Source of the DNA: Dehalococcoidia bacterium
GTDB lineage: Bacteria > Chloroflexota > Dehalococcoidia > Lucifugimonadales > GCA-2712585
DNA: 55,824 nucleotides
Assembly (NCBI GenBank): GCA_034420855.1
Contig: DAOUKX010000021.1
Span: forward strand, 1-55,824
Direction of reading: 5' to 3'
In this document: piece after piece, positions 3,752-25,805 of the stretch
How positions within the stretch are numbered: the stretch's first letter is position 1
Layout: every line of letters starts with the position of its first letter
Translations under genes and position numbers: made by a program
Notes under the pieces: generated by a model
Database searches by the model: none
What the model was told of the DNA's origin: nothing
Seen by the model: the letters and a program-made list of their open reading frames with translations, nothing else

Positions 3752-4831
3752 GTGCGCACTCTAATTGCAGCAATCCTGGCAATGGGTATTCTCTTGTCTC
3801 TAATCGCCTGTACAGGCGATACAGGCCCGGCCGGACAGACCGGCCCTGCTGGTCCCCAAGGCCCTGCCGGCGCAGTCGGCCCTCAGGGTCCACCCGGTAA
3901 TGCTGGGCCTCCAGGCGCTGAAGGGCCTGCTGGACCGCCTGGCCCTCCCACTCCATCTGCCTTGCCAGCTCCAGTGGCCGAAACGCCTTTGGTGGACATG
4001 GCCGAAATCACCTCCCTGTTTGAAGGACTGATGGATCTGGCTGAGACCGGCGTGTCCGACGTGCCCAAGTGGGAGCCTGTCTTTTATACTCAAGAGTTCG
4101 TCAGAGAGGCTATCAGAAAATACCTATCAGAGGGTCTTGAAGCCACTGTTGACTACTACAACACTCCGGCAAGCATCGATGGCCAGTGGTATCTGTTCAT
4201 CTTCGACGAAAATGACGTTATGCTGGCTCACGGAGCTAATCCGGGATTCGTTGGCAAGCCTGCTTCGGAGGTCGACGGACCCAACAACTTTCCCGCCGGA
4301 GAAGCGGTAGTGGCGGTCGCCGACGAGGATGGCGAATGGTTCAGCTACTCATTCATTAACCCCGCAACCAACGGAGTTGAGGAAAAGCACTCCTGGATGG
4401 TTGAGGTAGACGGGCTGACTTTTGGTTCCGGCTGGTATGAACGAGGCGTCAGCAAGGCCGACGTGCAAGGTTACACCAGAGATTTCGTGAAGCGATCTAT
4501 AGACCTGTATAATGCGATCGGCCTGGAGGCAACCCTCGCCTACTACAACACAAGGGAAAGTGTGGACGGTCAGTGGTATGTATTCATCGTTGACGAGAAC
4601 GGTTACACCATCGGCCATCACAATTCCATGTTCATCGGCCGAGACCCCAGTGAGCGTATCGACTCTGAAGGCTACTTCTATGGCGACGACCTGCTGAGCG
4701 CTTCCGAGGGGGGGCGTTGGGTGGACTATGTGCTGCTGAATCCTGAGACGGGTGACGAGCGCCAGAAGCATACCTGGGCAGTCCGCCATGACGGTCTAAT
4801 CTTTGCCTCGGGATGGTACGAAAACAGATAA
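3752..4831 (+). CDS. Lipoprotein with a collagen-like Gly-X-Y stalk and two tandem single-Cache (sCache_2-like) domains
   Basis: GTG start preceded by AGGAAGG. Lipobox LSLIAC. 15 GXY triplets are followed by two paralogous modules of about 125 aa (DGQWYLFIFDENDVMLAHGANPGFVGK...GSGWYE and DGQWYVFIVDENGYTIGHHNSMFIGR...ASGWYE). Confidence 0.8.
   Translation: MRTLIAAILAMGILLSLIACTGDTGPAGQTGPAGPQGPAGAVGPQGPPGNAGPPGAEGPAGPPGPPTPSALPAPVAETPLVDMAEITSLFEGLMDLAETGVSDVPKWEPVFYTQEFVREAIRKYLSEGLEATVDYYNTPASIDGQWYLFIFDENDVMLAHGANPGFVGKPASEVDGPNNFPAGEAVVAVADEDGEWFSYSFINPATNGVEEKHSWMVEVDGLTFGSGWYERGVSKADVQGYTRDFVKRSIDLYNAIGLEATLAYYNTRESVDGQWYVFIVDENGYTIGHHNSMFIGRDPSERIDSEGYFYGDDLLSASEGGRWVDYVLLNPETGDERQKHTWAVRHDGLIFASGWYENR
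3815..3949 (+). repeat. Collagen-like triplet repeat: 15 uninterrupted Gly-X-Y codon triplets inside CDS 3752-4831
   Basis: Translation: GDT GPA GQT GPA GPQ GPA GAV GPQ GPP GNA GPP GAE GPA GPP GPP. Confidence 0.9.
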
Positions 4832-7012: not shown

Positions 7013-8017
7013 TCAGAGGTTAAACTGAGGGTCGACCCAATTGGACTCTTTCTGGTACACCTGAATGCGAGCCCTCTGATTGTCTGCAACCAGCACCTTG
7101 CCGTCGTACGATATCTCGACGGCGCAGGGCCGGTTGAACCGCCATTCCGGCTCATGGCTCTTCACCCGAAGTCGGGCTTTGATGTAGTCAGGATTCGCGT
7201 CTATAAACTCTTGGGCCCACCTGGAAAGTCGTTCCGCATCGCCGCGGAAGCTGGTAATGTGGATTCCCGAAGGATCGTAGACCTCCAGCTTATGGTTCCA
7301 CCAGTCCGTGACGTATACGTCACCGTCCCTGTCGACTGCCACGTCGCTTGGATGCTTTACCTCACCTGGACCTTCGCCGGAGCTGCCAAAGCTCATGATG
7401 TAATCGCCGTCCGGGGTGAACTTCTGGATCCTGTCATTGTGCCAGTCGGCCACATAGACGTAGCCGTCATGGTCGATGGAGATACCCCAAGGGCGACGGA
7501 ATTTGCCCTCAGCTTTGCCCTCGCTTCCCCAGCCTAGGACAAAGTCGCCGTCCTTTGTGAACTTCTGCACCCTGTGGTTCAACTCCTCGGTAATGTAGAA
7601 GTGTCCGTTTCCGTCGAAGACAAGGCCGCCGGGGCTGTTCAGTTGTCCCTTTTCTTTTCCGGGAGTTCCCCATTTGGTGATAAACGTTCCGTCCTTATCG
7701 AACACGGAAACACGGCATAGCCACTCGTCGAGAACGTACACCATGTCGTCATCGTCCAGAGCAATTGCTACGGGCCAAACGAATTTGCCGTCCGCCTCTC
7801 CGTAGCCGCCAAACTCTCCGAGGTAGTCTTCGTCGATGGTGGCTATGCTGATGCGCTGGCACTTCTGAAACTCGTCGGTCTGGTTCACTACATAGATGAC
7901 TCCGTCCTTGCCGATAGCCAGATCAGCGGGGTACCTGAAGCCACGCCCCGACAGGGTGTTGATGCCAATGGTGTGGCTGTAGTTGTAGACCCGGCCGCGG
8001 ACCGTTACAGTCTGCAT
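7013..8017 (-). CDS. NHL-repeat beta-propeller protein
   Basis: 334 aa with at least four clear repeats of about 45 aa of the NHL type (for example GQLNSPGGLVFDGNGHFYITEELNHRVQKFTKDGDFVLGWG and GKFRRPWGISIDHDGYVYVADWHNDRIQKFTPDGDYIMSFG), plus more divergent N- and C-terminal blades. No signal peptide is evident. Confidence 0.85.
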   Translation of the reverse strand: MQTVTVRGRVYNYSHTIGINTLSGRGFRYPADLAIGKDGVIYVVNQTDEFQKCQRISIATIDEDYLGEFGGYGEADGKFVWPVAIALDDDDMVYVLDEWLCRVSVFDKDGTFITKWGTPGKEKGQLNSPGGLVFDGNGHFYITEELNHRVQKFTKDGDFVLGWGSEGKAEGKFRRPWGISIDHDGYVYVADWHNDRIQKFTPDGDYIMSFGSSGEGPGEVKHPSDVAVDRDGDVYVTDWWNHKLEVYDPSGIHITSFRGDAERLSRWAQEFIDANPDYIKARLRVKSHEPEWRFNRPCAVEISYDGKVLVADNQRARIQVYQKESNWVDPQFNL

Positions 8018-8044
8018 GGCGATGACTCCAAGAGTGCGGTGGAA

Positions 8045-9493
8045 TTAGCCAAACTGGTACTCGGGCGAGGAGGCAATCAGACGAAGCATTTCGCCGACAC
8101 GACGGGCGAAGGCCGCGCGTTCCTCTTCAGAGATGCCCCTCCGGACTGCGCCCTCAGCCTCCGTATGTGCAATGAGCTGACTGCGTGTATCGTCATTCAC
8201 TTGAACGGCGCCCATCAGGTGTGCGCAGCCATCAACAAACTCCCCCGCAGTGAAGCTGTCTTTGACGGAGAGCCTTTGGATAATGTTGCTCACTCCCTCC
8301 AAAGACACATCTCCCACCCTATCGGCTGCGAAGTTGATGCGCCGGACCAGAGCGCCTGTGTCAAGCCATTCATGTCCCGTGTGCCAGCCCTCAACGCTTG
8401 GGGGGTCCAATAGACTCTGTCCCTGGTACGCGGTTTCCATCCCGACCAGGCCAATTCCCGGCTTGGGGGATTGATGGTCCTGGACCAGACGCATAGTGCC
8501 GGCAATCACTTCCGCAGGGCTTTTTACCTTTGCGAAACGAACCGAGGGGTCCTTGAAGAAGTATGCATTGAATAACATGCTTAACGTGGTTCGGATGTCG
8601 TAACCCGAATCGACGAAAGTTGCGGCGATGCGGTTTATCGCCACGGGGTCTCTAGGCGACTCGTCCAGCCAACTGGGTACCTGAACTTCGTCGGCGACAA
8701 AGAAGTTGTACAGGTGGCGGGCCATGAAGCGCGCTGTCGCTGGCTGACGGACTACGATGTCAATGATGTCTTCACCATTGAACATGCCGCTGTGTCCCAG
8801 AAACGTCTTCTCTCCGTCATCGTGGTCGTCAGGGCGGTATTCAAACTCCCAGAGATGCCGTAGATAGGGCATACGAGGCAGCTTAGGGGCAATTGTCCAG
8901 CCAGTGAATGCGCGGGAGCACTCCTTCACGTCTTCCTCAGTGTAGTTGCCCTGCCCCATGGAGAAGAGTTCCAGCAGTTCACGTCCCCAGTTCTCGTTGG
9001 GGGCATCCTTGTGGTTCTCGTTGTTGTCCAGCCAGAAAATCATGGCCGGGTCCTTGGCCAGCCGCAGCAGCAGGTCCCGGTAGTTGCCCATTCCGTGTTG
9101 ACGAAACATCGAAATCTGGGCTTGCATCTGGTTGCAGTTGTCAAGCTTCGAGTGGCCGGTAGCGAAGACCTGGTGCCAGAACAGAGCCATCTTTTCTTCC
9201 AACGGCCTTGGCGTGTTTATCAGCCGATACATCCAGTGGCCCTGGCCGTTGTGCGGTAGTCCGCCAGGTATCTCGAAGCCGGGATTGTGACGGAATATGA
9301 TGCTTTCGTCGATGGGCGGTATCCCATGCTCTTCCGGATAGACCAACTCGTCTACCGTGGCTTCGTAGCCTTTGGCGAGCCTGGCTTCCAGCTCGCTTAT
9401 GGGGGCGCCGAATCCTGCCCTCCGCATCAGGTGTGCCATTAGTGCGATGTCTTTGTCTGCCATCATGTTATCCTGATTCTTGTTGATTCTCAT
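8045..9493 (-). CDS. DUF1800-family protein
   Basis: 482 aa. The DUF1800 core is present as I remember it: LEEKMALFWHQVFATG ... GNYRDLLLRLAKDPAMIFWLDN ... PNENWGRELLELFSMGQGNYTEEDVKECSRAFTGW. Confidence 0.8.
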   Translation of the reverse strand: MRINKNQDNMMADKDIALMAHLMRRAGFGAPISELEARLAKGYEATVDELVYPEEHGIPPIDESIIFRHNPGFEIPGGLPHNGQGHWMYRLINTPRPLEEKMALFWHQVFATGHSKLDNCNQMQAQISMFRQHGMGNYRDLLLRLAKDPAMIFWLDNNENHKDAPNENWGRELLELFSMGQGNYTEEDVKECSRAFTGWTIAPKLPRMPYLRHLWEFEYRPDDHDDGEKTFLGHSGMFNGEDIIDIVVRQPATARFMARHLYNFFVADEVQVPSWLDESPRDPVAINRIAATFVDSGYDIRTTLSMLFNAYFFKDPSVRFAKVKSPAEVIAGTMRLVQDHQSPKPGIGLVGMETAYQGQSLLDPPSVEGWHTGHEWLDTGALVRRINFAADRVGDVSLEGVSNIIQRLSVKDSFTAGEFVDGCAHLMGAVQVNDDTRSQLIAHTEAEGAVRRGISEEERAAFARRVGEMLRLIASSPEYQFG

Positions 9494-9614
9494 GATAGGT
9501 ACGAGTTAAAAGGAAGTCAATTTTGCCGATGATGTAGCAATGTCGTCCATGTCTCGATCTAAAGAGACAGCTATTGTATAGCCAGCGCTGAGTGACCGAC
9601 CTAGAATATGAGAT

Positions 9615-11003
9615 ATGGGCAATAGAAACAGCAGGACATCGCAAAACCGGATAGCGATAATAGGCGGGGGAATATCAGGTCTGGCAGCGGCGTGGGGGCT
9701 GCATCAACACCCCGACCGCTTTGATTTCCGCCTGTTTGAAGCCCAGGACCGGATTGGTGGAAATGCAGTCACAGTTGATATGCCGCAGGAAGACGGGACT
9801 GCCATTCCCTTCGATATTTCGGTAACTGCGTGCATTCCCTCGATTTACCACCACATTGTGCTGCTGATGGAAAATTTTGGCATTGAGCTGTTCGAGACGA
9901 AATTCAGCTACAGCGTTAAGTACAGGGGCCAAGTCTACGCTCACGATTTCGATTCCGAGATCAGAAAAGAGCTGCAGCCGGAGATTGATAAATTCCAACG
10001 CCTCCTTAAACGGCTTCACCGGTTCGGCAGGCTAAGTCGCTCGCAGTCCAAGTTCGTCAATGCCCTTAATCCCTACAACTACGTGAGCATGGGCACGGTG
10101 CTGAATTGGCACGGCTTTTCGGGGGAATTTCGTTACAAGATTCTCAAGCCGATGTTCGTTAACTTTGTGCTGGCGACGAACGTGTTCGACATGCCGGCGT
10201 CTCTCTTCTCCAGATACCTCGAGTTCTTTGACATAGAGTTCGCCACTCTCATGCAGACCTGGGACCAGGGAACCCGGCGAATATATGAAAACCTGACTTC
10301 GGGCCTTAGAGACAAGATTTACCTGAGCAGGCCCGTCCGAAAAGTCTATCGGAAGCCCTCCGGCGTTGTGGTAGAGGACGAAAACGGCGATCAGGAATCA
10401 TTTGACGAGGTGGTCTTTGCCTGCAACGCTAACCAGACGCTGATGATGCTTGATAACCCCACGATGCTGGAGCGTTATCTTCTCTCGTCGATTCGTTACG
10501 AGAGCGAGCTTCACAACCACACGGTAGTGCATTCGGACTCCTCGGTCTTGCCTGATAACGAGGTAAGGCCTCTGGAGACCAGGAGCAACCACATTGAGCA
10601 GTACGGGTCAAGGCCGGACAATTATGAAATCACCTACATCATGCACAACCAGCAGCCCTGGGCCCATGATTCCGACAAACCGTGTCTTGTGACCTACAAC
10701 CCGATCAGCAAGATCAACGAAGGGAAGGTCATCCGAAGACACTGGTTCCAACATATCGTGCACGACGTTCGGCACGTTGCGTTTCTCATGCATTTGTTTC
10801 GATTCGTTCAGGGCAAGAGACACACCTGGCACTGCGGCGCTCATACGCTGATCAACAGCCAGGAGACCTGTTTCGTCAGTGGACTGGCCGCGGCAAGACA
10901 GTTGGGCGCGGATTATCCCTTCGACGACCAGGAAGCAAGGAGGATGTTCAACTATTACGGGAGCATTCTGTACGGTTGGGCTTTCAAGAAAGCGAAGGGT
11001 TGA
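9615..11003 (+). CDS. NAD(P)/FAD-dependent oxidoreductase, COG2907 / amine-oxidase-like
   Basis: 462 aa. N-terminal dinucleotide fold IAIIGGGISGLAAAWGL ... LFEAQDRIGGN. The C-terminal signature W.CGA...(E)..SGL.AA..LG is typical of the COG2907 flavoproteins usually found next to CFA-synthase-like genes. Confidence 0.75.
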   Translation: MGNRNSRTSQNRIAIIGGGISGLAAAWGLHQHPDRFDFRLFEAQDRIGGNAVTVDMPQEDGTAIPFDISVTACIPSIYHHIVLLMENFGIELFETKFSYSVKYRGQVYAHDFDSEIRKELQPEIDKFQRLLKRLHRFGRLSRSQSKFVNALNPYNYVSMGTVLNWHGFSGEFRYKILKPMFVNFVLATNVFDMPASLFSRYLEFFDIEFATLMQTWDQGTRRIYENLTSGLRDKIYLSRPVRKVYRKPSGVVVEDENGDQESFDEVVFACNANQTLMMLDNPTMLERYLLSSIRYESELHNHTVVHSDSSVLPDNEVRPLETRSNHIEQYGSRPDNYEITYIMHNQQPWAHDSDKPCLVTYNPISKINEGKVIRRHWFQHIVHDVRHVAFLMHLFRFVQGKRHTWHCGAHTLINSQETCFVSGLAAARQLGADYPFDDQEARRMFNYYGSILYGWAFKKAKG

Positions 11004-11113
11004 ACAGGGACGGAGGCCGGGAGCGCCACATAATTGAGACCCCGAGTTGTGGGACTTCAGCAGTTGTTCACTTCACTTAAAGCCATGTTCGTGGGTATTT
11101 TTGGAACACTGAT

Positions 11114-11143
11114 TTGCATCCGCATCACCGCAGGAAGTATACT
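11114..11143 (+). promoter_or_regulatory. Candidate sigma70-type promoter for the GPP34-P450 gene (TTGCAT - 18 nt - TATACT)
   Basis: TTGCAT at 11114-11119 and TATACT at 11138-11143, about 60 nt upstream of the ATG at 11205. That ATG has an AAGGAGA ribosome-binding site. Pattern match only. Confidence 0.35.
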
Positions 11144-11204
11144 GAGTGTGTATCCGTTAAGAGTGGTTGAGATTAGTGCGTGGAATTGACGCAAGGAGAC
11201 AATC

Positions 11205-13232
11205 ATGGTTACAGCCACACAGGAAACTGCCCTTTACACGCTGACTCTGCCAGAGGAACTCATTCTGATGCTCCTCAACGAGGAGAACGGGTACTTTCAT
11301 CAGGTTCCCGGCTGGGATTTGAACTGCGCCATCGTCGGAGCTGCCCTTGGTGAACTCTCCCTTCTGTCTCGGATAGACACCGACCTTGAGTCTCTATTTC
11401 TCATTGACTCTACAGAAACCGGCGACCCTACACTGGACCCCATATTGAAGGAGATTGCGGAGGAAGAGAACAAGCGCGATGCGCTATATTGGATTGAAAG
11501 GCTCGCTCCCCGCGCTGAGTCCATCATCGACCTGACGCTCGACCGGCTTGTGGACATGAAGATTCTGGAGCAGCACGCGGGAGAATTCTGGACTCTTGCT
11601 CGCAATGCACGCATGGGTAAGTTTGCCGGCGGTTTCTCCGAGGGCACCCTGGTAGAGTTCGTCAAAACGCGGATTACCAAGGAGATCTTCGACGACGAGA
11701 TCCCTGACCCGCGGGACGCCATGCTCATCAGTCTCGTTGATGCATGCGATGTCTTTCGCTTCATGTTCCAACTGGATGAGGAGACGGAAAAACGCATCAA
11801 GTTTATTCGCCAGACAGCTTTGCTTGGGCGCACCATTGCCGCTGCCGTCGCCGAAAACATAGCCAGTCCGCTGCTCAGACGGTCTGCGTTAACCAAGAAG
11901 ATTCCAAACGTCTCACTGCGCAAGATGATGTTCAACAAGCGCCTGCGGGACGGAAACATTCCTGCCCTATTCGCAGATCTTGCAAGCGAGTACGGCCCAG
12001 TGTTTCAGATTCGGCCGCCGTTCCAGAAGCCCATGATTTTTCTGGCCGGGCCTGAGACAAATCATTGGGTGCACCGACGCGGGCGCATGTACCTCAGGGC
12101 GAAAGACTATATTGCAGACTTTGAGAAAGTTTATGGAGCAAACGGGGTCTTGCCTTCCCTAGATGGAGCGGATCATTTTAAATTGCGCAAGTCTCTGGCG
12201 CCGGCCTATTCCCGGGGAAGGCTATCAAGCCAGGTAGAGCAAGTGTATGAATATGTGAGGAAATTCATGTCTACCTGGGAGGTGGGAGACGTACACCCCG
12301 CAACAGCCATGTGCCGGCAAATGATTAACGCGCAACTCTCACCCCTGTTTATCAGCGTTGATTCCCAGGACATCATCGAAGACCTCGCAAAATACAAGGA
12401 ACGGGCGCTGCTGGTCCACATCGTAAAAATATTGCCGAAGTTCATGCTGAAGACGCCAGACATGAAACGCCGCGCAAAAGCAGTAGACGTCCTCCTGCAA
12501 AGAGTGCAGAATGTGCATACCCCATCCCAGAGAGCCGGGCAACCGCGAGATCTTGCGGATGACCTGCTGAGTCTGCACGCCAGCGATCCACAGCTTGTTT
12601 CCGAGTCGGACCTTCGGTTTGCTCTATCGGCGGCTTTGATTGCCAGCGTATACCTGGGCGATGCGTTCAGCTTTGCCGTGTATGCCATGTTAGCCCAGCC
12701 GGAACTCTACGCCAAGATCCAAGAAGAGGCAGACGCCCTCTTCGAGAACGGCGATCCAGAAGGCAAAGACTTCACCCTTGATGCCATCGACGTAACCCAC
12801 CGCTTTCTTATTGAATGTCTACGCATGTATCCAATTGTTCCAATGTCCATGCGAACGGTAATGAATTCGTGTGTGGTGGAGGACTATGAACTGCCCGTGG
12901 GTTCGCGCATTATCATTGCCCAGTCAGCCTCTCATTTTATGGAGGACGTTTTCCCGGACCCCTTCAAGTTTGACATAGACCGCTACAAGCCTCCTCGCAA
13001 TGAGCATCACAGCCCCGGATATGCACCATACGGATTGGGAACGCACATGTGCCTCGGTTCCCGGTGGATGGACCTGCAGTTGACCATCAACGTGCTTATG
13101 CTGGCCCATTACTTCACGCTCAAGATTTCTCCGTCCAACTACAAGTTGAAGGTCAACCCGATGCCGTCCTCTAAACCCAACAGCAAGCTGAAGTTCCAGG
13201 TAGTGAACAAAAGGCGAGATATCAACGTCTGA
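11205..13232 (+). CDS. Fusion protein: N-terminal GPP34/GOLPH3-like domain + C-terminal cytochrome P450
   Basis: 675 aa. Residues about 10-225 resemble GPP34 (LPEELILMLLNEENGYF ... DPRDAMLISLVDACDVF). Residues about 240-675 carry P450 hallmarks: ExxR (ECLR), PDPFKFDIDRY, and the heme loop YAPYGLGTHMCLGSRW (Cys codon at 13050-13052). One continuous frame with no internal stop. Confidence 0.85.
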   Translation: MVTATQETALYTLTLPEELILMLLNEENGYFHQVPGWDLNCAIVGAALGELSLLSRIDTDLESLFLIDSTETGDPTLDPILKEIAEEENKRDALYWIERLAPRAESIIDLTLDRLVDMKILEQHAGEFWTLARNARMGKFAGGFSEGTLVEFVKTRITKEIFDDEIPDPRDAMLISLVDACDVFRFMFQLDEETEKRIKFIRQTALLGRTIAAAVAENIASPLLRRSALTKKIPNVSLRKMMFNKRLRDGNIPALFADLASEYGPVFQIRPPFQKPMIFLAGPETNHWVHRRGRMYLRAKDYIADFEKVYGANGVLPSLDGADHFKLRKSLAPAYSRGRLSSQVEQVYEYVRKFMSTWEVGDVHPATAMCRQMINAQLSPLFISVDSQDIIEDLAKYKERALLVHIVKILPKFMLKTPDMKRRAKAVDVLLQRVQNVHTPSQRAGQPRDLADDLLSLHASDPQLVSESDLRFALSAALIASVYLGDAFSFAVYAMLAQPELYAKIQEEADALFENGDPEGKDFTLDAIDVTHRFLIECLRMYPIVPMSMRTVMNSCVVEDYELPVGSRIIIAQSASHFMEDVFPDPFKFDIDRYKPPRNEHHSPGYAPYGLGTHMCLGSRWMDLQLTINVLMLAHYFTLKISPSNYKLKVNPMPSSKPNSKLKFQVVNKRRDINV

Positions 13233-13271
13233 CGCTCTCCGTGCTGCGCAAGCTAGAGGGAAGAAAAGGAC

Positions 13272-14309
13272 TTAAGAAGGCTTGCGAGCCAGGAAGCAGT
13301 AGAGAGGCGTGAAGATCCCTGCCTTGCCGCCCGCCACATAGGCGTTGGCGGTGCAGTCCAAGAGCCCCACCACATCCGTAGATCCCTTTGGGAAAATCCT
13401 CAACGTCTCGGCCACTCTGGATGCTCCGATAAATAGCTTGCGTCCCAACGGAATCCTCCGCAGAGCGTCGCGCATTGTGCCGCCCCTGGTTTCCATGGGC
13501 TGGTACCACGGCGTACTCGGAGCGTTTTCATCCGCGGCCCGATCCATTGCTTCCATTACCTGAAATCCCGCCGTCTGAAGGGCCTGATTTACCTCTTCAA
13601 AACTGGCGATATCCTTGAGCGCGATGCCGTGCATCAGGTCTCTCTTGATGGCGCGGTGCCGCTCCAAGTCGGGGTTGAACTCATCCGTCATGCACATTTC
13701 CTGCCCCCAGAAAAGGGCGCCGGGTTTCAGTACGCGGTATATCTCAGCGAAGGCGCCCGCTTTGTCCGGCGCATGACAGGTTGATTCGATGGCGTAACCA
13801 CGGTCAATTGAATCGTCGGCGATTGCATCCATTTTCATGAAGCTGCATGCCAGATAGTCAACCATGTGGTCGATGCCTGCCTCTGAGTTCAACGCTTTCG
13901 CCTTCTGCAACTGAATTTCACTCCGATTGACGCCGACTACTCTTACATCCGCCTCACTGACAACACGGCGCATCGGGCCACCGATCCCGCAACCAACGTC
14001 TATAACGGTCATGCCCTTGCGCAAGTCCAGCTTGTCTATCATCAGCCGCTGGTGGCGTATCTTGGAATCCTCCAGACTTTCGCTAGGTGACAGGGGTGCA
14101 AAGTGCAGAGATTCACCCCAGCCGAACACCATGAACTCATTGCAGAGGTCGTAGTATTCCTTCACGGTTTCTGCGTGGTCGTAGCCCGGCCCTCCGGCTT
14201 CTTCCATCTTCGCCTTGTCCATCCACTCATGGAAGAGTCTCACGCGGCGACGGACGTCGGATCCTCGGTATGAGTCCTTCAGCCCGCTGGAGAGTTTGCG
14301 CAGTTGCAT
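13272..14309 (-). CDS. Sterol 24-C-methyltransferase (ERG6/SMT)-like SAM-dependent methyltransferase
   Basis: 345 aa. Matches the conserved SMT blocks as I remember them from ERG6: YYDLCNEFMVFGWGESLHFAP (ERG6 YYN..TDFYEYGWGSSFHF), IDVGCGIGGP, YAIESTCHAP (ERG6 YAIEATCHAP), IYRVLKPG, PWY, and the C-terminal AYVAGGKAGIFTPLYCFLARKP (ERG6 LVAGGKSKLFTPMMLFVARKP). Confidence 0.85.
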   Translation of the reverse strand: MQLRKLSSGLKDSYRGSDVRRRVRLFHEWMDKAKMEEAGGPGYDHAETVKEYYDLCNEFMVFGWGESLHFAPLSPSESLEDSKIRHQRLMIDKLDLRKGMTVIDVGCGIGGPMRRVVSEADVRVVGVNRSEIQLQKAKALNSEAGIDHMVDYLACSFMKMDAIADDSIDRGYAIESTCHAPDKAGAFAEIYRVLKPGALFWGQEMCMTDEFNPDLERHRAIKRDLMHGIALKDIASFEEVNQALQTAGFQVMEAMDRAADENAPSTPWYQPMETRGGTMRDALRRIPLGRKLFIGASRVAETLRIFPKGSTDVVGLLDCTANAYVAGGKAGIFTPLYCFLARKPS

Positions 14310-14332
14310 AAGTTCCCTTACCAGGACTTGAC

Positions 14333-16798
14333 CTATTCGTTTTCGTGGCGCCTATGCACGGCTTCTATGGCTTCATCCAATTCATCGGACCAACGCTGCA
14401 CCGAAGATCGGAGCCGCATGTTCTGGTAGGCGCCCCATACAGTCATCATGGGGGGCACCATGATGATGGATACGATGAGTGAATAGGCGATTGTTATGCC
14501 CGCGGTGATTCCGAATTGCTGAGACGCAGCCAGTGGTGAGAATACAAGCGCTCCCAGGCCAAGCCCGGTTGTGAGCGCAGAACCCAGGAGGGCCGAGCCG
14601 GTGGTGGAAAGAGTTTGTACGGCGGCTTGTTGCGGGTCGCGTGCCTTGGAGTATTCCTCACGATAACGGTGAATCATGTGAATTGTGTAGTCCACGCCAA
14701 TGCCGATTGAGAGAGCCGTGATGATTGACGTGATGATTGTGTACGGAATGCCCAGGAGGGCCATTGTTCCCAGGACCGAGATGAGGACAAGCACAATGGG
14801 CCCAACGGCGATTATTGCCAGAGCGGGCTGCCGCACCGTCACCCAGAAGAAAACGGCGAGAACTGTGAGTGCAGCCAGAATGGTGGTAATGATGGCCTCC
14901 GACTGCCGCTCCGTAATGGAGTCGGTGACGGTAACGGAGATAATGCTCTCCGAAGTGGCGGTGATTGTGTCGTCTTCGCCAAACCAGAGGTCTTCAATCT
15001 CCTGTTGGAGTATTTTAGTGCCGGATGGATCGCTGTTGATTACGCGGAATTGAAGCAACATGGCGTCGACCCCATTGGGGTCGTTGATCAGCATCCGGCC
15101 TAAGGCGGGGTCTTTTGCCTCCAGCTTGTCCAGGAACTCTTGCATGAGAGTCGCATCGAATTGGATGCCCGCGGAAGCTTCTTTGAATAGGGCAGCAAGT
15201 TTAGGGTCATACTTGTCCCCGGGTTCCCCACTTTCGGTCACCCAGTCGCGTACAAGTAGCTCGTAGGATGCGAGAATGGGTCCGGCGGCTGCTCTGGGTC
15301 GTCGGGCCTCATCAGCAAAACCTTCCTCAAGGTCCTGCAGATTTAGGAGGGTGCGAGTCTCCGTGGCTTCCCCCCTGACAAGGGCAGTGGCCATTTCGGT
15401 TGAGCCGCCAACTGCAACTTCAAGGGTGTCCAGGTCCTTCAACAAGGTCCCGCCCCGCGGAAGGATGTCGCGTATGTCGAATTCCGACTTGAGGTCGGTG
15501 GCCGCAAATCCGAATCCGATGGTCACGGCAATTACGCCAATGATGTAAGGGGCAGGTCTGTTCGTAACACTGCGTCCCAGCCACGCCGCGATGCGGCTGA
15601 CGCCGGGCAAGGCGTTCGCAATGGGACGAGGTGGAGTCAGGCTTCCACGTGCTTCGCGTCTGCGATCAATGATTGTCCTACCGGCAGGTACAAGGGTCAG
15701 CATTACGATAAGGCTCATGCCAACTCCCAATCCGGCGATGATGCCGAAATCTCCCACGATGTTGATCGGCGAGAAAAGGTTGGCCAGGAAGCTGATAATA
15801 GTGGTGACGGCAGCCAATACCAGAGGTATGGTGACGTTTCGCAGGCCCATCCTGACAGAGCTCAGGACCCCTTCCCCGGCGGTGCGCTGCTCTCGGTAGT
15901 GGGATACAATTTGGATTGCGTAGTCCACGGTGAGGCCGATGATGATTATGGGCACCATGGTGGTCAGGGAGTTGGGAGGGCCGGTGATTCCCAATCCGTT
16001 CGGTCCAAGCCAGCCTTCCGTGCCGACAATCCAGATTATCGACATGAGGAGACCGCCAAGGGTCAGGAAGAGGTCCGAGAATGTGCGCATGAAGAGGAGA
16101 ATCAACGCTGCGATCAGCAGGAAAGCGAGCCCGATAAGGGGCGCCATTCCTTCTTCGGTGGCCTTCCTGTATTCGTCCTCTATGACGATGGGAGAAACGC
16201 TGCTCACGGTCAGCGGGCCTTCATCGCCAATTGCCAAATCTTGAATCAGACGCTCTGCGACCTTTATTCGTTCGTCGCCGGTGTCCTGGAGGCGGATGAT
16301 GGCAATTGACACTGCGGTACCGTCGATGTCTGTACCGGTTACTGCGTCCAAGGCGGCCTGAATCTCCGGGATGCTACGAACAGAATCTATTTCCGCCTGG
16401 GTGACGGACTCGAAGGAGTCCACCTGAAGCAGGGACTTGATCATGAACGAGGGAGCGAAGACGGGGTCTTCGTGCTCCAACAGGGTTCCAACGCTTGGAT
16501 TGCTAACCATGGACGATACGAGGCCATCCATCTGCCCGAGTCCCTGTGGGGTAAAGGCCTCGCCGCGAAAGACCAAAGTCACTACATTGGCTTCACCGGA
16601 ATCTCCAAAAAGCTCGTCGATTTCCACTAGGACTTCAGCCACGCGGCTATTATCGGGAAGGGTTTCCGCGGTTTCTGGCGGCGGGGCTCTCCGGGTGGCT
16701 CCCGCGCCCAGCAATACGGTGATGAGGACTAGGACGAGGATGGTGATGTACGGGCGTCCCGTGATTATTCGGCTCAACCTGCCTGGTATGTCGCTCAT
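14333..16798 (-). CDS. RND-superfamily exporter, COG1033/MMPL/HpnN-like (two 6-TM bundles with sterol-sensing-domain-like topology)
   Basis: 821 aa. Two homologous halves, each an extracytoplasmic domain followed by about 5-6 TM helices. Paired motifs GLTVDYAIQIVSHYREQ and GIGVDYTIHMIHRYREE are typical of COG1033/HpnN-type transporters. Confidence 0.8.
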   Translation of the reverse strand: MSDIPGRLSRIITGRPYITILVLVLITVLLGAGATRRAPPPETAETLPDNSRVAEVLVEIDELFGDSGEANVVTLVFRGEAFTPQGLGQMDGLVSSMVSNPSVGTLLEHEDPVFAPSFMIKSLLQVDSFESVTQAEIDSVRSIPEIQAALDAVTGTDIDGTAVSIAIIRLQDTGDERIKVAERLIQDLAIGDEGPLTVSSVSPIVIEDEYRKATEEGMAPLIGLAFLLIAALILLFMRTFSDLFLTLGGLLMSIIWIVGTEGWLGPNGLGITGPPNSLTTMVPIIIIGLTVDYAIQIVSHYREQRTAGEGVLSSVRMGLRNVTIPLVLAAVTTIISFLANLFSPINIVGDFGIIAGLGVGMSLIVMLTLVPAGRTIIDRRREARGSLTPPRPIANALPGVSRIAAWLGRSVTNRPAPYIIGVIAVTIGFGFAATDLKSEFDIRDILPRGGTLLKDLDTLEVAVGGSTEMATALVRGEATETRTLLNLQDLEEGFADEARRPRAAAGPILASYELLVRDWVTESGEPGDKYDPKLAALFKEASAGIQFDATLMQEFLDKLEAKDPALGRMLINDPNGVDAMLLQFRVINSDPSGTKILQQEIEDLWFGEDDTITATSESIISVTVTDSITERQSEAIITTILAALTVLAVFFWVTVRQPALAIIAVGPIVLVLISVLGTMALLGIPYTIITSIITALSIGIGVDYTIHMIHRYREEYSKARDPQQAAVQTLSTTGSALLGSALTTGLGLGALVFSPLAASQQFGITAGITIAYSLIVSIIMVPPMMTVWGAYQNMRLRSSVQRWSDELDEAIEAVHRRHENE

Positions 16799-17057
16799 AT
16801 TTTACCCTTCTGTCGAATCAAGACGGTTGGTACAGCGCCCTTCGCTTTTCGGCTCATCGTATCAAGTCTATAGAGTATGTGCCTGTTGAAGTTATTGCCT
16901 GCCATGAATCCGCTCTACAAACTCTTACCGTAGGCGAGAAGACTCGGCAATACTGGTAGACAAGTAAGTCGGGGGCGCAACACATGGACCGGCTAAATGG
17001 TTCTGTCATTTATTATGCAAGTTGCCGGTCTTGGAAGGTTTGTGACGGTTGTAATGT

Positions 17058-18134
17058 TCAACGGACAGCGCCGCTATGTGCAAGAGGCTCAGGCTGAGCA
17101 GCCTTGCTTGGATTTGGGTAGAACTGGGCACAGTAGGCCCTGAAGGGCATTACCTCTCCGTCGGAGCGGGATAGACGAGGGCGGGAGACGTACTGCTTAC
17201 GGCTCCAGATGATTACATCCTGAAGTACGTCTCTGAGCTGAACGGCCGAGATGAACTTGTTGATAATGGGGGCGCGCAGTCCTGTGGGAAGAAATCCCAA
17301 GCCGGCGAGCAGCTTCTTTGGGTTGCGGATTTCTCGTACTTGTGACACGAGAGTTAAGTCAATGAACGTTCCGTCTACGGGCGTTGCGAGGACCCAGAGG
17401 CGCATGTCCATGCCAATTGAGTGTTCACGGATCTCCACATGGGAGTAGCCCAGTCCGCAAACAAGGGTTTTTGCTGAGATGTTCATAGTGAAGGTTGGGA
17501 GCTTGGCGAAAGAAAAGGTCCTGGAGAAATCGAACCGGCTATCCAGATATGGGCCGGTTATCGTTGCTTTACCGACCCGCTTAACGCTGTCGTAGCCATG
17601 AACGTAGCGCAGGTGGGCCAAATCTACGGAGTTCTCAGATGTTTCCTGGGGGTGACCGGAAAAGCGGACGGTCCTGATGCTGTTGCTGCACCAACCGGTT
17701 TGATCGAGCAGTTCTGTGGGCAGGCGCCATTGGGGTTTGCGGCCCTCAATCCCCCACCATGCGAATAAGAGGCCGTTGATTTCCCGGGTCTCATATACTT
17801 TCAGCCTGGCAGTCTTGGGAGGTTCTGCATAGGGTGTGGCGACGCATTGGCCTGTGGCATCGAATTCAAAACCATGGAAGGGACAGACCAGCCGCCCGGC
17901 GCATACGCGTCCACCGGCAGCAGGGCCTAACTGCGAACCCAGATGAGGACAGTAGGCATCGGCCACGCATATTTGGCCGTCCTCGTCACACCAGACAACG
18001 ATGTTTTCTCCCATCCAGGTCTTCTGGATGAGCTTGGCTTTCAGGATGTCCTTACGGTTTGTGATGAAGTACCAACCCTCAGGAAAAGGGGAAAGCGATT
18101 GGGCATACGTGAGTTTCGTACGTTGGGCTGACAT
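17058..18134 (-). CDS. Rieske [2Fe-2S] non-heme-iron oxygenase, alpha-subunit type
   Basis: 358 aa. Rieske motif CPHLGSQLG-x13-CPFHGFEF (C62/H64/C84/H87, nt 17874-17951). Mononuclear iron motif ENSVDLAHLRYVH (E/N..D..H....H). No ferredoxin or reductase gene is adjacent. Confidence 0.85.
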   Translation of the reverse strand: MSAQRTKLTYAQSLSPFPEGWYFITNRKDILKAKLIQKTWMGENIVVWCDEDGQICVADAYCPHLGSQLGPAAGGRVCAGRLVCPFHGFEFDATGQCVATPYAEPPKTARLKVYETREINGLLFAWWGIEGRKPQWRLPTELLDQTGWCSNSIRTVRFSGHPQETSENSVDLAHLRYVHGYDSVKRVGKATITGPYLDSRFDFSRTFSFAKLPTFTMNISAKTLVCGLGYSHVEIREHSIGMDMRLWVLATPVDGTFIDLTLVSQVREIRNPKKLLAGLGFLPTGLRAPIINKFISAVQLRDVLQDVIIWSRKQYVSRPRLSRSDGEVMPFRAYCAQFYPNPSKAAQPEPLAHSGAVR

Positions 18135-18197
18135 CGTTCAAAACTCCCTCTCAAAGTTCCTATACCGGCGCCTTCCATGTCACGCATATTTCACTAA

Positions 18198-18214
18198 TAG
18201 AATATCACATTCTA
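18198..18214. promoter_or_regulatory. Palindrome TAGAAT-atcac-ATTCTA, 64-80 nt upstream of the Rieske oxygenase start (candidate operator and/or -10 element)
   Basis: Perfect 6-bp inverted arms with a 5-nt spacer in the AT-rich 18135-18335 intergenic region. The octamer TAGAATAT also occurs at 9601-9608, directly upstream of the flavoenzyme ATG (9615). Confidence 0.3.
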
Positions 18215-18335
18215 GTACCTGTCTCACCGTGAAAACATGCATAGAAGTAATTTGTGCTTCAGAATCCGAGCCAGGCAAAGGGTTGCAGATCAAGTTTGGC
18301 CTTTTGCGTAACAAGACGAGCATGCTTCAATAAGC

Positions 18336-21300
18336 TTACGTGTCGTTCTCTGTTATCTTCTGTAGTAGTTCAAGTTGCGCCTCTACCTCGCCGGAGAGCT
18401 TATCGAAGACCTGACAGGCCTGGGTTGTTGGGGGGAAGTCGCCGCTGGCCACAACTTCCGAGAGAGAGGCTAGCTTGGGGCCAAGCCGGGTCGGAGGAGG
18501 CTTCTGGGGATTCGATCCGAGGATTGGTATGAGTTGTTCCTCCACGGACGAGAGGTCTTGCTTCATTGTCGAGGCGGTGGTGGATGACTCGTCTATGTTT
18601 TCGCGTATCTCCCGTATCTTGGCAACGGCATTGTTGGTTTTCTTGATGGTGTCGCGAATTCTGATGAGGAGGTCGAACTGGGCCTGAAGATCCTCTTCAG
18701 ATACCGGCACTCGCGAGTCCTTGTAGATTTGGAAGGGCTGAATTTGGGACGCGTTTCCCACGGTGAGGTTGACCTGGTAGTCGCCGGGCGGGGCGATGGG
18801 TCCTTCCATATGAGTTGTTCCCTCCGCACCAGGATAGCGCATGTCCCAGATAAAACGGTTCATCCCGGGTATCGTGGGTATTCTCTGCCCGTTTTCGCTT
18901 CGGCTGGAGAACTCCTTAATGAAGTTGCCGGCAGAATCAAGGAAGGTCAGCTTGACCTCATCCTGATGTTCTCCATGCAGAAGGTAGGTAAGGGAGACGC
19001 CTCTGGGAGGGTTGGCTCCCGCGACAAGGTAGGTGTGGCGAAGCTGACCCGTGGAAGTATGGCTCTGGTAGAAGGGTGCGATTTCACCGCTAACCATGCG
19101 GTAGTTCTTGCTCCTTCCCGGCCTGTAAGGGAAACTCTGCGGCAGCGCAATGCGGCGGGCTGGCCTTGGTGCGAACAGGAAATCGGTAGCAGGAGCGATG
19201 CCGTCTTTGATCTGGTGCAGAGGCGTCAGATCGTCGAGGATCCAGATGGCCCTTCCGTGGGTGGCGATGACCAGATCGTCGTTCTTGATGACCATATCGT
19301 GGACCGGGACTGCGGGCAGGTTCAGGCTCAATGGCTTCCAGCTGTCGCCGTCGTCAAAGCTGACGTAGACGCTGGTCTCTGTTCCTGCGTACAGCAGTCC
19401 CTGGCGGGCCGGATCCTCCCGTATGACGCGAGTAAAGTCGTTCTCTGGAATACCATTGGTGATTTTCGTCCAGGTTTTGCCGTAATCGTGGGTCTTAAAC
19501 AGGTAGGGCCTGGTGTCGTCCATCTTGTGGTGGGTGGCGGCAAGGTAGGCCGTGGCCGGGTCATGAGAGGAGGGATCGATTGTAATTATAATGGACCACG
19601 AGGGGAGGTCAGGAGGAGTCACGTTCTCCCAGTTCTCTCCGCCGTCTCTTGTTATGTGGACCAGGCCGTCGTCGGAACCGGCCCACAGGAGGCCTTCCGC
19701 GAGGGTGGACTCGTCTAGGGTCATTATACTGCCCATGTTGAAGGGGTTTACCACCTGGATGCTGATGGGACCGCCGTGCAGTTTCGACATTACAGACACG
19801 TCGTTGGTGGTGAGGTCCGGGCTGATGATGGACCAGCTGTGCCCCTCGTCGGTGGAACGAAAGACGACGTGGGCTGCAATGTAGAGCACGCTCGGGTCGT
19901 GAGGCGAAAGGAAGGTGGGGAAGTGGAACTGGAACCGGTACGGGTTGTCCTTGCCAGGGACCATGCCCATGTTCTCAGGCCAGGCCGTAATCATGCGAGT
20001 CTGTCCGGTGGAATGATCGTACATAGTCAGGTTGCCGCCGCCGCCGGGGGAACTCCCAATGGCTCCGGCGAAGACGATGTTTGGGTTCTCGGGATGAACG
20101 GCGATATGGCCGCTTTCGGCGGGGCCAGCGATATGACAATGCTGCCACAGGATGGCTGCGTCGTTGGTGCTGCTGGGCACGCTCATGGCGGTGTTGTCCA
20201 TCTGGGTGGCGTACACGCGATATGGGTCCTGGTTGTCGGTGGTGAGGTGGAAGAAGCTGGCGGTGGGCTGGTTGTAGAGGGTGGACCAGGTGAAGCCGCC
20301 GTTCAGCGAAACCACAGCCCCGCCGTCGCTTCCTTCAATCATGCGGTCCGGATTGTTGGGGTCTATCCAAAGATCATGATTGTCGCCGTGGGGCATCGGC
20401 AGACTCTCGAAGGTGCGCCCTCCGTCAGTGGACTTCCAGAACTCTACGGATAGGACGTAGCAGGTGTCCGCTTCAGTGGGGTGAGCAAAAACGTGGATGT
20501 AGTAGGTACCGCGCCACCACAGGTTTGCCTGGCCGGTTAGCTTCTGCCACGTTTCCCCTGAGTCGTCAGAGCGGTAGAGGCCGCCGTCCTCGGCTTCAAT
20601 CAGCGCCCAAACTCGCTCAGGCATTGCGGGGGAAATAGCAACGCCGATCTTGCCAAGGATACCCGGGGGCATGCCGGGGTTGCAGCTGATTTCGGTCCAT
20701 GTATCACCGCCGTCTTCAGAACGAGAGAGGCCGCTGTGGGGGCCGCCGCTTTGGTGCGTCCACGGATAGCCGCGCAGTTGATATAGAGAGGCGAAGAGAC
20801 GCCGGGGGTTGTTTGGGTCCATGCTGATGTCGATGCCACCAGCTTGCGGCGTGTTGTAGAGGACTTTCTCCCAGCTTCGGCCTCCGTCCCTGGAGCGGAA
20901 TATACCCCGATCCTCATTCGGCCCCCAGACGTGGCCGAGGGCAGCAACGTAGACCAGTTCCGGGTCTTCCGGATGGACGCGAATCTTGGCTATGTGCCGG
21001 GTGTCTTTAAGGCCCATGTTTACCCATGTGCGTCCGCCGTCCGTGGACTTGTACACACCGTCGCCGTGGGACTCGTTGCTCTGGAAGGTGGACTCGCCGG
21101 TGCCAACGTAGATGACATTGGGATCGGAAGGTGCCACGGCAATGGCGCCCACGGAGGCGGTGGTAAAGAAGGCGTCGGATACGTTTTCCCAGTGGGTCCC
21201 CGCGTCTACGGTCTTCCAGACTCCCCCACCGCTGGCGCCGAAGTAGAATACCAGGGGGTTTGAGGGATCGGCGGCAACGGCGACCACTCTGGCGCCGCGG

Positions 21301-21359
21301 AACGGGCCGATGCATCGCCATTCCATTGCCTGAAACTTGGCAGGGCTAACGTTTACCAT
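18336..21359 (-). CDS. BNR/Asp-box repeat, sortilin/VPS10-like double beta-propeller protein (commonly annotated as glycosyl hydrolase, BNR repeat)
   Basis: 1007 aa with at least 9 Asp-box-like motifs of S.D.G.TW type (STDGGRTW, SRDGGRSW, SEDGGDTW, SDDSGETW, STDGGRTF, STDEGHSW, TRDGGENW, THDYGKTW, FDDGDSW). No obvious signal peptide. Confidence 0.8.
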   Translation of the reverse strand: MVNVSPAKFQAMEWRCIGPFRGARVVAVAADPSNPLVFYFGASGGGVWKTVDAGTHWENVSDAFFTTASVGAIAVAPSDPNVIYVGTGESTFQSNESHGDGVYKSTDGGRTWVNMGLKDTRHIAKIRVHPEDPELVYVAALGHVWGPNEDRGIFRSRDGGRSWEKVLYNTPQAGGIDISMDPNNPRRLFASLYQLRGYPWTHQSGGPHSGLSRSEDGGDTWTEISCNPGMPPGILGKIGVAISPAMPERVWALIEAEDGGLYRSDDSGETWQKLTGQANLWWRGTYYIHVFAHPTEADTCYVLSVEFWKSTDGGRTFESLPMPHGDNHDLWIDPNNPDRMIEGSDGGAVVSLNGGFTWSTLYNQPTASFFHLTTDNQDPYRVYATQMDNTAMSVPSSTNDAAILWQHCHIAGPAESGHIAVHPENPNIVFAGAIGSSPGGGGNLTMYDHSTGQTRMITAWPENMGMVPGKDNPYRFQFHFPTFLSPHDPSVLYIAAHVVFRSTDEGHSWSIISPDLTTNDVSVMSKLHGGPISIQVVNPFNMGSIMTLDESTLAEGLLWAGSDDGLVHITRDGGENWENVTPPDLPSWSIIITIDPSSHDPATAYLAATHHKMDDTRPYLFKTHDYGKTWTKITNGIPENDFTRVIREDPARQGLLYAGTETSVYVSFDDGDSWKPLSLNLPAVPVHDMVIKNDDLVIATHGRAIWILDDLTPLHQIKDGIAPATDFLFAPRPARRIALPQSFPYRPGRSKNYRMVSGEIAPFYQSHTSTGQLRHTYLVAGANPPRGVSLTYLLHGEHQDEVKLTFLDSAGNFIKEFSSRSENGQRIPTIPGMNRFIWDMRYPGAEGTTHMEGPIAPPGDYQVNLTVGNASQIQPFQIYKDSRVPVSEEDLQAQFDLLIRIRDTIKKTNNAVAKIREIRENIDESSTTASTMKQDLSSVEEQLIPILGSNPQKPPPTRLGPKLASLSEVVASGDFPPTTQACQVFDKLSGEVEAQLELLQKITENDT

Positions 21360-22519: not shown

Positions 22520-22522
22520 CCT

Positions 22523-24877: not shown

Positions 24878-24879
24878 CC

Positions 24880-25746: not shown

Positions 25747-25805
25747 GTTACCTGAGCCTGCGCCGTCGGCTGGACAGGTATGCTTGGGCCCTATCTCTTT
25801 AGTAT

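Follow-up and report, generated by a model that had tools for sequence, protein, structure and literature searches.

What does a bacterium gain by joining a GOLPH3-like domain to a cytochrome P450 in one polypeptide? The question is raised by a gene at positions 11205-13232 (+ strand) of a 55,824-nt stretch of Dehalococcoidia bacterium DNA (contig DAOUKX010000021.1 of assembly GCA_034420855.1; hereafter, the window). The gene encodes a 675-aa protein with an N-terminal GPP34 domain (PF05719) and a C-terminal P450 domain (PF00067). We argue, at somewhat better than even confidence, that this protein is a cytoplasmic P450 tailoring sterols or triterpenoids, that it is encoded in a mobile module of sponge symbionts and that its GPP34 domain serves membrane targeting or docking independent of phosphatidylinositol-4-phosphate (PI4P). 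The heme-thiolate enzyme would modify a sterol or a closely related triterpenoid in the cytoplasm, as part of a horizontally spread module that would also comprise a divergent sterol C-methyltransferase (SMT), a KshA-like Rieske oxygenase, an FAD-dependent oxidoreductase and an RND transporter.

The fusion itself is real. The open reading frame (ORF) starts with ATG, runs through 675 codons with no internal stops and is preceded, 6 nt upstream, by a ribosome-binding site read off the sequence (AAGGAG, 11193-11198, + strand), as a preliminary description of this DNA had stated. The same description took the gene for a genuine in-frame fusion, and orthologs, independent assemblies and an AlphaFold2 model bear this out. 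Among 5.8 billion proteins searched, more than 120 clusters matched at 69-98% identity, and every one of them has PF05719 plus PF00067; more than 119 full-length orthologs originate from different samples. A relative is encoded in 220 GTDB species genomes, and the exact fusion protein is also encoded on a second public contig; the genomes closest to the window are uncultured Dehalococcoidia metagenome-assembled genomes (MAGs). In a scan of 1.84 billion cluster representatives, the matches listed included ~45 distinct full-length fusions (640-720 aa), which sit in separate 50%-identity clusters and extend down to 27% identity, as well as stand-alone P450 relatives of ~440-460 aa. Pfam and AlphaFold, both proposed as checks in the preliminary description, gave clear answers: the GPP34 and P450 domains were both found above cut-off, and the model of the whole chain is confident (pLDDT 88.8, pTM 0.86), low confidence being limited to residues 1-10, 136-147 and 223-227.

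Could assembly or gene calling have merged two separate genes? Split or shortened copies of the fusion, with a frameshift or premature stop, do occur in a few related loci (L012 10001-12028, L059 9902-10915 and L010 9947-11794) and could be taken as a hint of such an artefact. However, the more than 119 independent full-length orthologs, some on closed long-read chromosomes, the conserved linker and the confident whole-chain model leave a merging artefact with a chance close to nil. A junction artefact is excluded because independent assemblies, rather than reads, carry the fusion. The three split copies could be pseudogenes or long-read indel errors; together with crude start-codon calls, they explain the odd fusion lengths among the 80 loci that we fetched for comparison of gene neighborhoods. 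We found neither another GPP34 or P450 gene in the window nor a stand-alone GPP34 gene near the fusion in the 80 loci.

The preliminary description had presented the architecture as new and bacterial GPP34 proteins as normally standing alone; neither statement holds. A study published in Microbiome in January 2025 distinguished two forms of bacterial GPP34 protein, the short GPP34_S and the long GPP34_L (PMC11706023). Long forms constitute 47.5% of the GPP34 proteins in its 20-phylum data set of sponge symbionts, and 656 of the 663 long forms combine GPP34 with a P450, an arrangement reported only in sponge symbionts (PMC11706023). Representatives of GPP34_L are transcribed in tissue of the sponge Aplysina aerophoba; two genomes were found to encode GPP34 joined to a Rieske domain, and P450 genes were seen next to GPP34 genes that stand alone (PMC11706023). 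The caveat of the preliminary description that the architecture might prove common and already characterized was right in its first half: GPP34-P450 proteins are common and have been described, though not at the level of biochemistry. With the same PF05719 plus PF00067 chain of ~675 aa, the window gene belongs to GPP34_L, and the class occurs in the same lineages as the relatives of the fusion (Chloroflexota, Nitrospirota, Gemmatimonadota, Actinobacteriota, Proteobacteria and others). Those relatives whose source can be attributed, by our reading of record prefixes and of the cited papers, come from sponge metagenomes and MAGs (Aplysina, Petrosia, Ircinia, Rhopaloeides) and one coral MAG; we saw none labelled free-living. 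The published study is purely comparative, and the words ‘sterol’ and ‘methyltransferase’ never appear in its text (PMC11706023). A literature search on GPP34 with sterol terms found no paper tying the fusions to sterol genes. While the architecture is thus already published, the sterol-cluster context, the loss of the PI4P-binding arginines and the clade-specific I-helix variant are additions of the present analysis.

The company that the gene keeps in the window points to lipid chemistry. Directly 5′ of it lies a gene (9615-11003, + strand) for a 462-aa FAD-dependent oxidoreductase of the amine-oxidase fold (Pfam Amino_oxidase and NAD_binding_8). Its closest solved proteins are LkcE (E 4e-35) and a Propionibacterium acnes ‘putative aminooxidase’ (2b9w), which we take to be the fatty-acid double-bond isomerase of that species. 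On the other side, convergent with the fusion gene and 40 bp from its stop codon, is the gene for a 345-aa sterol-type C-methyltransferase (13272-14309, − strand; Sterol_MT_C PF08498, E 1e-15, and CMAS). It is followed by genes for an 821-aa RND transporter of MMPL/HAE3 type (14333-16798, − strand; Pfam MMPL, Sterol-sensing with E 2e-14, and Patched; NCBIfam matches to HAE3 and HpnN are sub-threshold) and for a 358-aa Rieske oxygenase with a KshA-type catalytic domain (17058-18134, − strand; Pfam Rieske and KshA_C). The closest solved relative of the Rieske protein is KshA (4qdc), matched over the full length with E 5e-27; assignment to SdmA was rejected (34 bits versus a model cut-off of 600). 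Sterol-specific signatures in the cluster are Sterol_MT_C, Sterol-sensing/Patched and KshA_C.

Is this neighborhood more than an accident of one genome? We fetched 80 species-level loci and searched 10 kb on each side of the fusion gene. The loci span Dehalococcoidia/SAR202, Latescibacterota, Nitrospirales, Longimicrobiales/Gemmatimonadota, Acidimicrobiia, Gamma- and Alphaproteobacteria (Paracoccaceae) and others, and several of them are located on closed long-read chromosomes. A Rieske/KshA_C gene was present in 59 of the 80 loci, an SMT gene in 47, a gene for an MMPL/SSD-type RND transporter in 45 and one for an FAD oxidoreductase in 35; an AcrB-type RND transporter, in some cases with a membrane-fusion protein and an outer-membrane factor, was found in 23. 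An RND transporter of any type accompanies the fusion in 67 loci and at least one partner class in 79; the sole partnerless locus is a 2.9-kb contig. The ordinary flanks in the window (DUF1800, NHL and BNR genes) recur only in the two to four closest genomes. Gene order and orientation vary between loci while membership persists, and protein identity across distant lineages is 65-85%; shuffled order, kept membership and such identity are the signature of a functionally coupled module moving horizontally. The association was also seen from the opposite side. When SMT orthologs were chosen with no regard to the P450, the fusion gene was adjacent in both of the two contigs with enough flanking sequence, and both contigs also hold Rieske, FAD and RND genes. 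The preliminary description had suggested a lipid substrate for the P450, and the location of the gene in a conserved cluster of sterol type now lends this idea much stronger support.

Homologs of ERG4/ERG24 reductases occur in four of the loci. One of the two contigs of the reverse test (L088, from the same study as the twin contig of the window) has two tandem ERG4/ERG24-family homologs at 14945-17065, beside a module of GPP34-P450, SMT, Rieske, FAD and RND genes.

A direct link to a complete de novo sterol cluster is seen in locus L032, from Nitrospira sp. bin75, a MAG placed by its accession among the Aplysina aerophoba assemblies. Over the 12 kb compared, L032 does not differ from JGI contig Ga0209021_1000731 (L090). 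The genes follow each other in the order GPP34-P450, SMT of the window type, canonical SMT, a fusion of squalene epoxidase and oxidosqualene cyclase (SMO-OSC), second P450, ERG4/ERG24 homolog and SdmA. The SMO-OSC fusion is a single ORF of 1219 aa (15078-18740, − strand; cyclase model E 2e-216), and SdmA was identified with E 2e-114. This order, including the unusual SMO-OSC fusion, matches that of cluster JGIcombinedJ30088_10000835 of Brown et al. 2023, which contains a propylating SMT and where genes 9 and 11 are SMT, 12 SMO+OSC, 13 ERG11, 14 ERG24 and 15 and 16 sdmAB (PMC10070321). Gene order and the SMO-OSC fusion suggest, short of proof, that L032/L090 and the published cluster are the same; the GPP34-P450 gene would then be the unannotated gene 8 in the published numbering.

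By the same correspondence, the second P450 of L032 (490 aa, with sub-threshold NCBIfam matches to terpenoid P450s only) appears to occupy the ERG11/CYP51 slot. With a separate P450 in this slot, the fusion protein is unlikely to be the 14-demethylase. We also rejected CYP51 as a name for the fusion on its own features, namely ~19-21% identity to solved CYP51s and an I-helix reading ASVYLGD, in agreement with the remark in the preliminary description that CYP51 signatures are missing.

The clusters described in sponge symbionts by Brown et al. (who counted loci with three or more sterol homologs including an SMT) and in Ircinia symbionts occur in the hosts and lineages of the fusion module; like it, they include an SMT that has the Sterol_MT_C domain and show signs of horizontal transfer (PMC10070321, PMC9531527). 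They have OSC, CYP51, ERG24 and SdmAB, all absent from the module in the window; a search of the whole 55.8 kb for CYP51, ERG24 and SdmA/B found none. In contrast to those clusters, the window module has a KshA-type Rieske protein, an FAD oxidoreductase, an RND pump and a divergent SMT (with the motif GWGESLHF). It is separate from the published clusters and undescribed in either paper.

Two further explanations should be weighed against this gene content. The KshA match brings to mind catabolism, with the Rieske protein and the P450 starting the breakdown of host sterols as a carbon source, KshA being a 3-ketosteroid 9-alpha-hydroxylase. Yet KstD, Hsa, Mce4 and beta-oxidation genes are all missing from the recurrent neighbors, the module includes a biosynthetic methyltransferase and an exporter, and in L032 it adjoins biosynthetic genes; catabolism is, in our estimate, highly improbable. 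The transporters raise a better case for detoxification, where the four enzymes of the module would modify toxic lipophilic metabolites of the host or of neighbors, namely steroidal or terpenoid compounds of the sponge holobiont, and the RND pump would expel them, so that the trait would be one of resistance and not of membrane-lipid biosynthesis. The presence of an RND pump in 67 of the 80 loci, the use of tripartite AcrB systems with membrane-fusion protein and outer-membrane factor (an exporting type) in lineages with outer-membrane factors, and a window lacking a cyclase are consistent with this, and the high identity across lineages would fit a mobile niche-specific trait. But the methyltransferase has a sterol-specific C-terminal domain, the fusion and SMT genes adjoin a de novo sterol pathway in Nitrospira, and ERG4/ERG24 reductases stand near the fusion in four loci. 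We thus consider detoxification unlikely, though worth keeping in mind.

The replacement of the MMPL/sterol-sensing transporter by an AcrB-type system was observed in loci having outer-membrane-factor genes (in Latescibacterota, Gemmatimonadota and others). An AcrB-type pump with membrane-fusion protein and outer-membrane factor is located beside the fusion at L039 6750-9929, L025 5414-6625, L077 4020-5591 and L081 8067-16661. Such a replacement next to the fusion gene implies export of the product.

What, then, does the GPP34 domain contribute? The preliminary description had assigned the first ~225 residues to GPP34, and this call was confirmed both by sequence and by structure. The Pfam match covers aa 15-217 (11247-11855, + strand) and model positions 1-200 of 201, with E 6e-28 and 98.7 bits versus a cut-off of 29.1. 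When the N-terminal domain was modelled alone, Foldseek against the PDB gave GOLPH3 and Vps74 as the sole significant matches (E 3e-9, TM-score 0.71); a profile of 18 bacterial GPP34 domains matched GOLPH3 (3kn1) with E 1.5e-12. In GOLPH3, PI4P is bound by residues W81, R90, R171 and R174, while a hairpin at 190-201 inserts into the membrane (PMC13408441). The three arginines are all replaced in the fusion protein: R90 corresponds to V44 (V, A, I or T in the 119 orthologs), R171 to E105 (E or D in 119 of 119) and R174 to I108 (I or V in the 119). The counterpart of W81 is P35, mostly P in the orthologs; this position is uncertain, as an invariant W37, next to a gap in the alignment, follows two residues later. 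The net charge of residues 1-214 is −19, and no cofactor-binding motif was found in the domain. The GPP34 domain of the fusion does not, judging by these residues, use the PI4P pocket of GOLPH3, and PI4P binding, which the preliminary description cites for eukaryotic GOLPH3, cannot be transferred to it.

This bears directly on the function proposed for the class by its discoverers, namely that the GPP34 proteins of sponge symbionts, the P450 form included, are secreted effectors that bind host PI4P, block phagosome maturation and so prevent digestion of the symbiont (PMC11706023). The family is indeed confined to sponge and coral symbionts and expressed in sponge tissue, and its fold is genuinely GOLPH3-like. 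A secreted PI4P effector is, however, difficult to reconcile with the replacement of R90, R171 and R174 in all 119 orthologs, with a strongly acidic domain and with a protein that has no signal peptide and bears an intact heme enzyme. It also sits badly with the surroundings of the gene, which in many lineages is found with an RND pump and with cytoplasmic and membrane enzymes of lipid tailoring and, in one locus, adjoins a de novo sterol cluster; sterol genes were not considered in that proposal. A fold and a hydrophobic hairpin that are kept while the phosphoinositide pocket is lost argue against the PI4P-effector model, which we regard as very unlikely for the fusion.

The hydrophobic hairpin is conserved. 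It comprises aa 121-131 (11565-11597, + strand), aligned to the membrane-inserting hairpin of GOLPH3, and DSSP strands at 121-124 and 128-131 were assigned in both the whole-chain and the N-domain model. F128-W129-T130-L131 aligns with the GOLPH3 hairpin tip F194-L-L-F197; among the 119 orthologs, F128 is kept in 118 and position 129 is W or Y in all. Across the domain junction runs a basic stretch (aa 215-252, 11847-11960, + strand) with net charge +7 (median +6 in orthologs), which includes the model hinge at aa 223-227 (pLDDT <50). We found no signal peptide or transmembrane (TM) segment in the fusion protein, save for a TM-like stretch that is the buried I-helix. The membrane-anchor idea of the preliminary description is thus plausible in view of the conserved hairpin and the absence of a TM helix and signal peptide.

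In the sterol-tailoring reading, GPP34 would most likely tether to the cytoplasmic side of the membrane a P450 that is otherwise soluble. The conserved hydrophobic hairpin and the basic linker may contact the bacterial membrane; alternatively, the acidic surface of the domain may dock on a protein of the membrane, for instance the RND pump. Both ways of attachment would bring the P450 to a membrane-embedded substrate, much as the N-terminal TM helix does in eukaryotes. We infer the sterol substrate, the docking to membrane or partner and the direction of transport alike.

One could go further and see in GPP34 no anchor at all, but an adaptor whose acidic surface docks the P450 on a basic cytoplasmic segment of the RND transporter or on another partner, or else a domain that binds the sterol and presents it. 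An acidic domain next to a basic linker is in line with such a role. The acidic groove of GOLPH3 recognizes basic tails of client enzymes (PMC13408441), an RND pump is the frequent companion of the fusion noted above (67 of 80 loci) and the pTM of 0.86 suggests that the two domains are fixed relative to each other. The conserved hydrophobic hairpin, on the other hand, points to contact with lipid. We hold the adaptor or presenting role to be rather unlikely, if not to be neglected; it is only about one of the two domains and does not conflict with sterol tailoring by the P450. A general use of GPP34 as an oxygenase-targeting module fits the published GPP34-Rieske fusions and the GPP34 genes found beside P450 genes (PMC11706023).

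The second domain is a P450 of E-class fold (aa 249-659, 11949-13181, + strand; PF00067 with E 7e-39, 134.3 bits versus a cut-off of 22.8). The P450 motifs listed in the preliminary description are all present: the K-helix EXXR motif E537-C-L-R540 (12813-12824, + strand), FDIDRY with the meander R593 and the heme-binding loop Y609-G-L-G-T-H-M-C616-L-G618 (13029-13058, + strand) with Cys616, the thiolate ligand, encoded at 13050-13052. E537, R540, R593 and C616 are invariant in a 53-member family alignment; among the 119 orthologs, E537 and C616 are kept in all and R540 in 118. Pfam shows GPP34 and p450 only, with no fused flavin or iron-sulfur redox domain of the kind seen in BM3, CYP116B and CYP51-Fdx.

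Solved P450s matched by sequence in the PDB have at most 22% identity to the P450 of the fusion. Foldseek found CYP184A1, the CYP51 domain of Methylococcus capsulatus, BM3 and CYP120A1 at TM-scores of 0.80-0.85 and identities of 14-22% (TMt 0.83-0.85 for CYP184A1 and the M. capsulatus CYP51). In the nomenclature of P450s, membership in a family takes 40% identity or more. Attempts to name the domain by NCBIfam failed, with far sub-threshold matches to terpenoid enzymes only (pentalenene oxygenase, albaflavenone monooxygenase); membership in CYP152 was rejected as well (E 1e-4, 21 bits versus a cut-off of 600).

The active site departs from the P450 norm in the I-helix, where the preliminary description could find no acid-alcohol pair. 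This was correct: in place of A-G-x-D-T, the helix has A480-S-V-Y483-L-G-D486 (12642-12662, + strand), as seen in the alignment to CYP102-like 7f3w, where ‘LIAGHETTS’ is aligned to ‘LIASVYLGD’, and in the family alignment. Compared with A-G-x-D-T relatives, one residue is deleted, Tyr stands at the Thr position and the preceding acid is absent. A480, S481, Y483, G485 and D486 are identical in all 119 orthologs. Most other GPP34-P450 fusions and stand-alone relatives in the family alignment have a normal A-G-x-D-T; the deletion with Tyr occurs only in the clade around the query, down to ~36% identity, in the forms ASVYLGD, ASIYIGA, AAIYLGS and AGHYTGS. Being confined to this clade, the Tyr variant is therefore derived and was fixed within the SMT-linked clade.

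In known P450s the Thr position faces the distal side of the heme. A Tyr in place of Thr, with no preceding acid, suggests altered oxygen activation or a non-hydroxylating reaction. Since Asp486, one helical turn on from Tyr483, is invariant in the orthologs, the two residues might serve as an alternative proton relay. The atypical oxygen or peroxide chemistry proposed in the preliminary description is likewise only an inference from these residues. EryF (CYP107A1), the CYP74 allene oxide synthases and the CYP152 peroxygenases also lack the conserved I-helix Thr and the preceding acid. They share with the fusion this absence of the pair and are related to it at the superfamily level only; we know of no Tyr at the Thr position in any of the three.

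Several observations weigh against a sterol-tailoring function or the anchoring that goes with it. First, the SMT in the window has Region II DVGCGIGGP and Region I GWGESLHF, with Met/Val/Phe at yeast positions 81-83; its F89L departs from the GWGxxFHF motif found in every SMT active on desmosterol or 24-methylenecholesterol (bioRxiv 10.64898/2025.12.19.695621), so that its substrate is uncertain. The Leu variant of Region I is shared by 33 of 50 SMTs adjoining GPP34-P450 genes, and these enzymes may represent a subfamily with a different sterol intermediate, substrate or regiochemistry. Second, the 55.8-kb window has no oxidosqualene cyclase, meaning that the substrate may be made elsewhere in the genome, may be host-derived or may not be a sterol. 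Third, the module encodes no redox partner (ferredoxin or reductase gene), an absence that is uninformative because the Rieske enzyme needs a reductase too. Fourth, the acidity of GPP34 (−19) is unfavorable for direct contact with anionic bacterial membranes. Finally, distant paralogs of the fusion are located near a sulfotransferase and an acyltransferase, near an RND pump and an MpaB-like oxygenase, or near nothing related. The stand-alone P0160, a P450 of the non-canonical clade with 41% identity, has an SMT gene 3.4 kb away, which speaks for the sterol reading; taken together, the mixed contexts of P0124, P0127, P0138 and P0160 indicate that the wider fusion family is not all sterol-linked.

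At L083 8360-12439, the gene of paralog P0138 (35% identical, with a canonical AGxDT) has genes for a sulfotransferase and an acyltransferase_3 directly behind it, and PhyH and SDR genes are close by. Here the paralog stands in a different lipid-tailoring context, perhaps one with sulfated products.

Comparison with known systems places the fusion between several of them. With GOLPH3/Vps74 its N-terminal domain shares the fold (TM-score 0.71), a full-length Pfam match and the hydrophobic β-hairpin; it differs in the exchange of R90, R171 and R174 for V, E and I and in being acidic, bacterial and fused to an enzyme. Microsomal class II P450s are similar in layout, with an E-class fold following an N-terminal targeting element and a basic segment, and the presumed purpose, placing the enzyme on the membrane that holds its lipid substrate, is common to both. 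The fusion differs from them in using a 200-residue peripheral GOLPH3-like domain instead of a TM helix and in having no evident CPR-type partner. Bacterial P450s joined to a second functional domain are represented by BM3 (CYP102) and the CYP51-ferredoxin of M. capsulatus; their partners are C-terminal redox domains, whereas GPP34 is N-terminal.

A ‘eukaryote-like protein’ becomes, through its link to a sterol methyltransferase, a steroid-type Rieske protein and an exporter, a concrete candidate enzyme of bacterial sterol tailoring, in a class that is abundant in sponge microbiomes and 65-85% identical across distant lineages. It would also offer a possible bacterial route for bringing a P450 to a membrane substrate in which no TM helix is needed, and it challenges the sole published functional hypothesis for GPP34-P450 proteins. 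The matter has a bearing on 24-isopropyl and 26-methyl steranes as animal (sponge) biomarkers. In a bolder version, which we rate as quite improbable, the GPP34-P450, the divergent SMT, the Rieske protein and the FAD enzyme would jointly build an unconventional sponge sterol side chain (of the 26-methyl/aplysterol type, further alkylated or unusually desaturated), the P450 with its Tyr for Thr would catalyze a non-hydroxylating reaction at the membrane, and the product would reach the host through the RND pump. Were this true, bacteria and not the sponge would make some of the ‘sponge biomarker’ sterols.

Base composition and regulatory signals told little about the cluster. Its GC content (0.53-0.565) is only slightly lower than that of the neighboring cox/cob region (0.575-0.61), so the signal is not usable for calling a genomic island, and a scan of 9400-18400 for promoters and terminators gave counts not above those in shuffled sequence.

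Other genes in the window deserve brief mention. Upstream of the cluster, at 7013-9493 (− strand), are genes for an NHL-repeat beta-propeller protein (ScyF-like, sub-threshold) and a DUF1800 protein, with 90-93% identity and common only to the two closest Dehalococcoidia MAGs. Directly past the Rieske gene, at 18336-21359 (− strand), a 1007-aa protein with Sortilin-Vps10 and BNR/Asp-box domains, a eukaryote-like set, is encoded; it is conserved only in the four to five closest genomes. A 359-aa protein with collagen triple-helix repeats and Cache sensor domains (3752-4831, + strand) is eukaryote-like in the way reported for sponge symbionts. A gene set of the aerobic CO-dehydrogenase type extends over 21461-28068, with CoxG on the − strand and the small [2Fe-2S], large Mo and FAD subunits, an AAA ATPase and a CoxE-like VWA protein on the + strand; its large subunit scores below the CoxL equivalog cut-off, which leaves the substrate uncertain. 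It is followed at 28107-39144 by a block for cobalamin salvage and the lower ligand: CobU, a CobC-like phosphatase, CobT (DBI_PRT), a FecCD-type permease with a periplasmic binding protein, CobD and CobQ.

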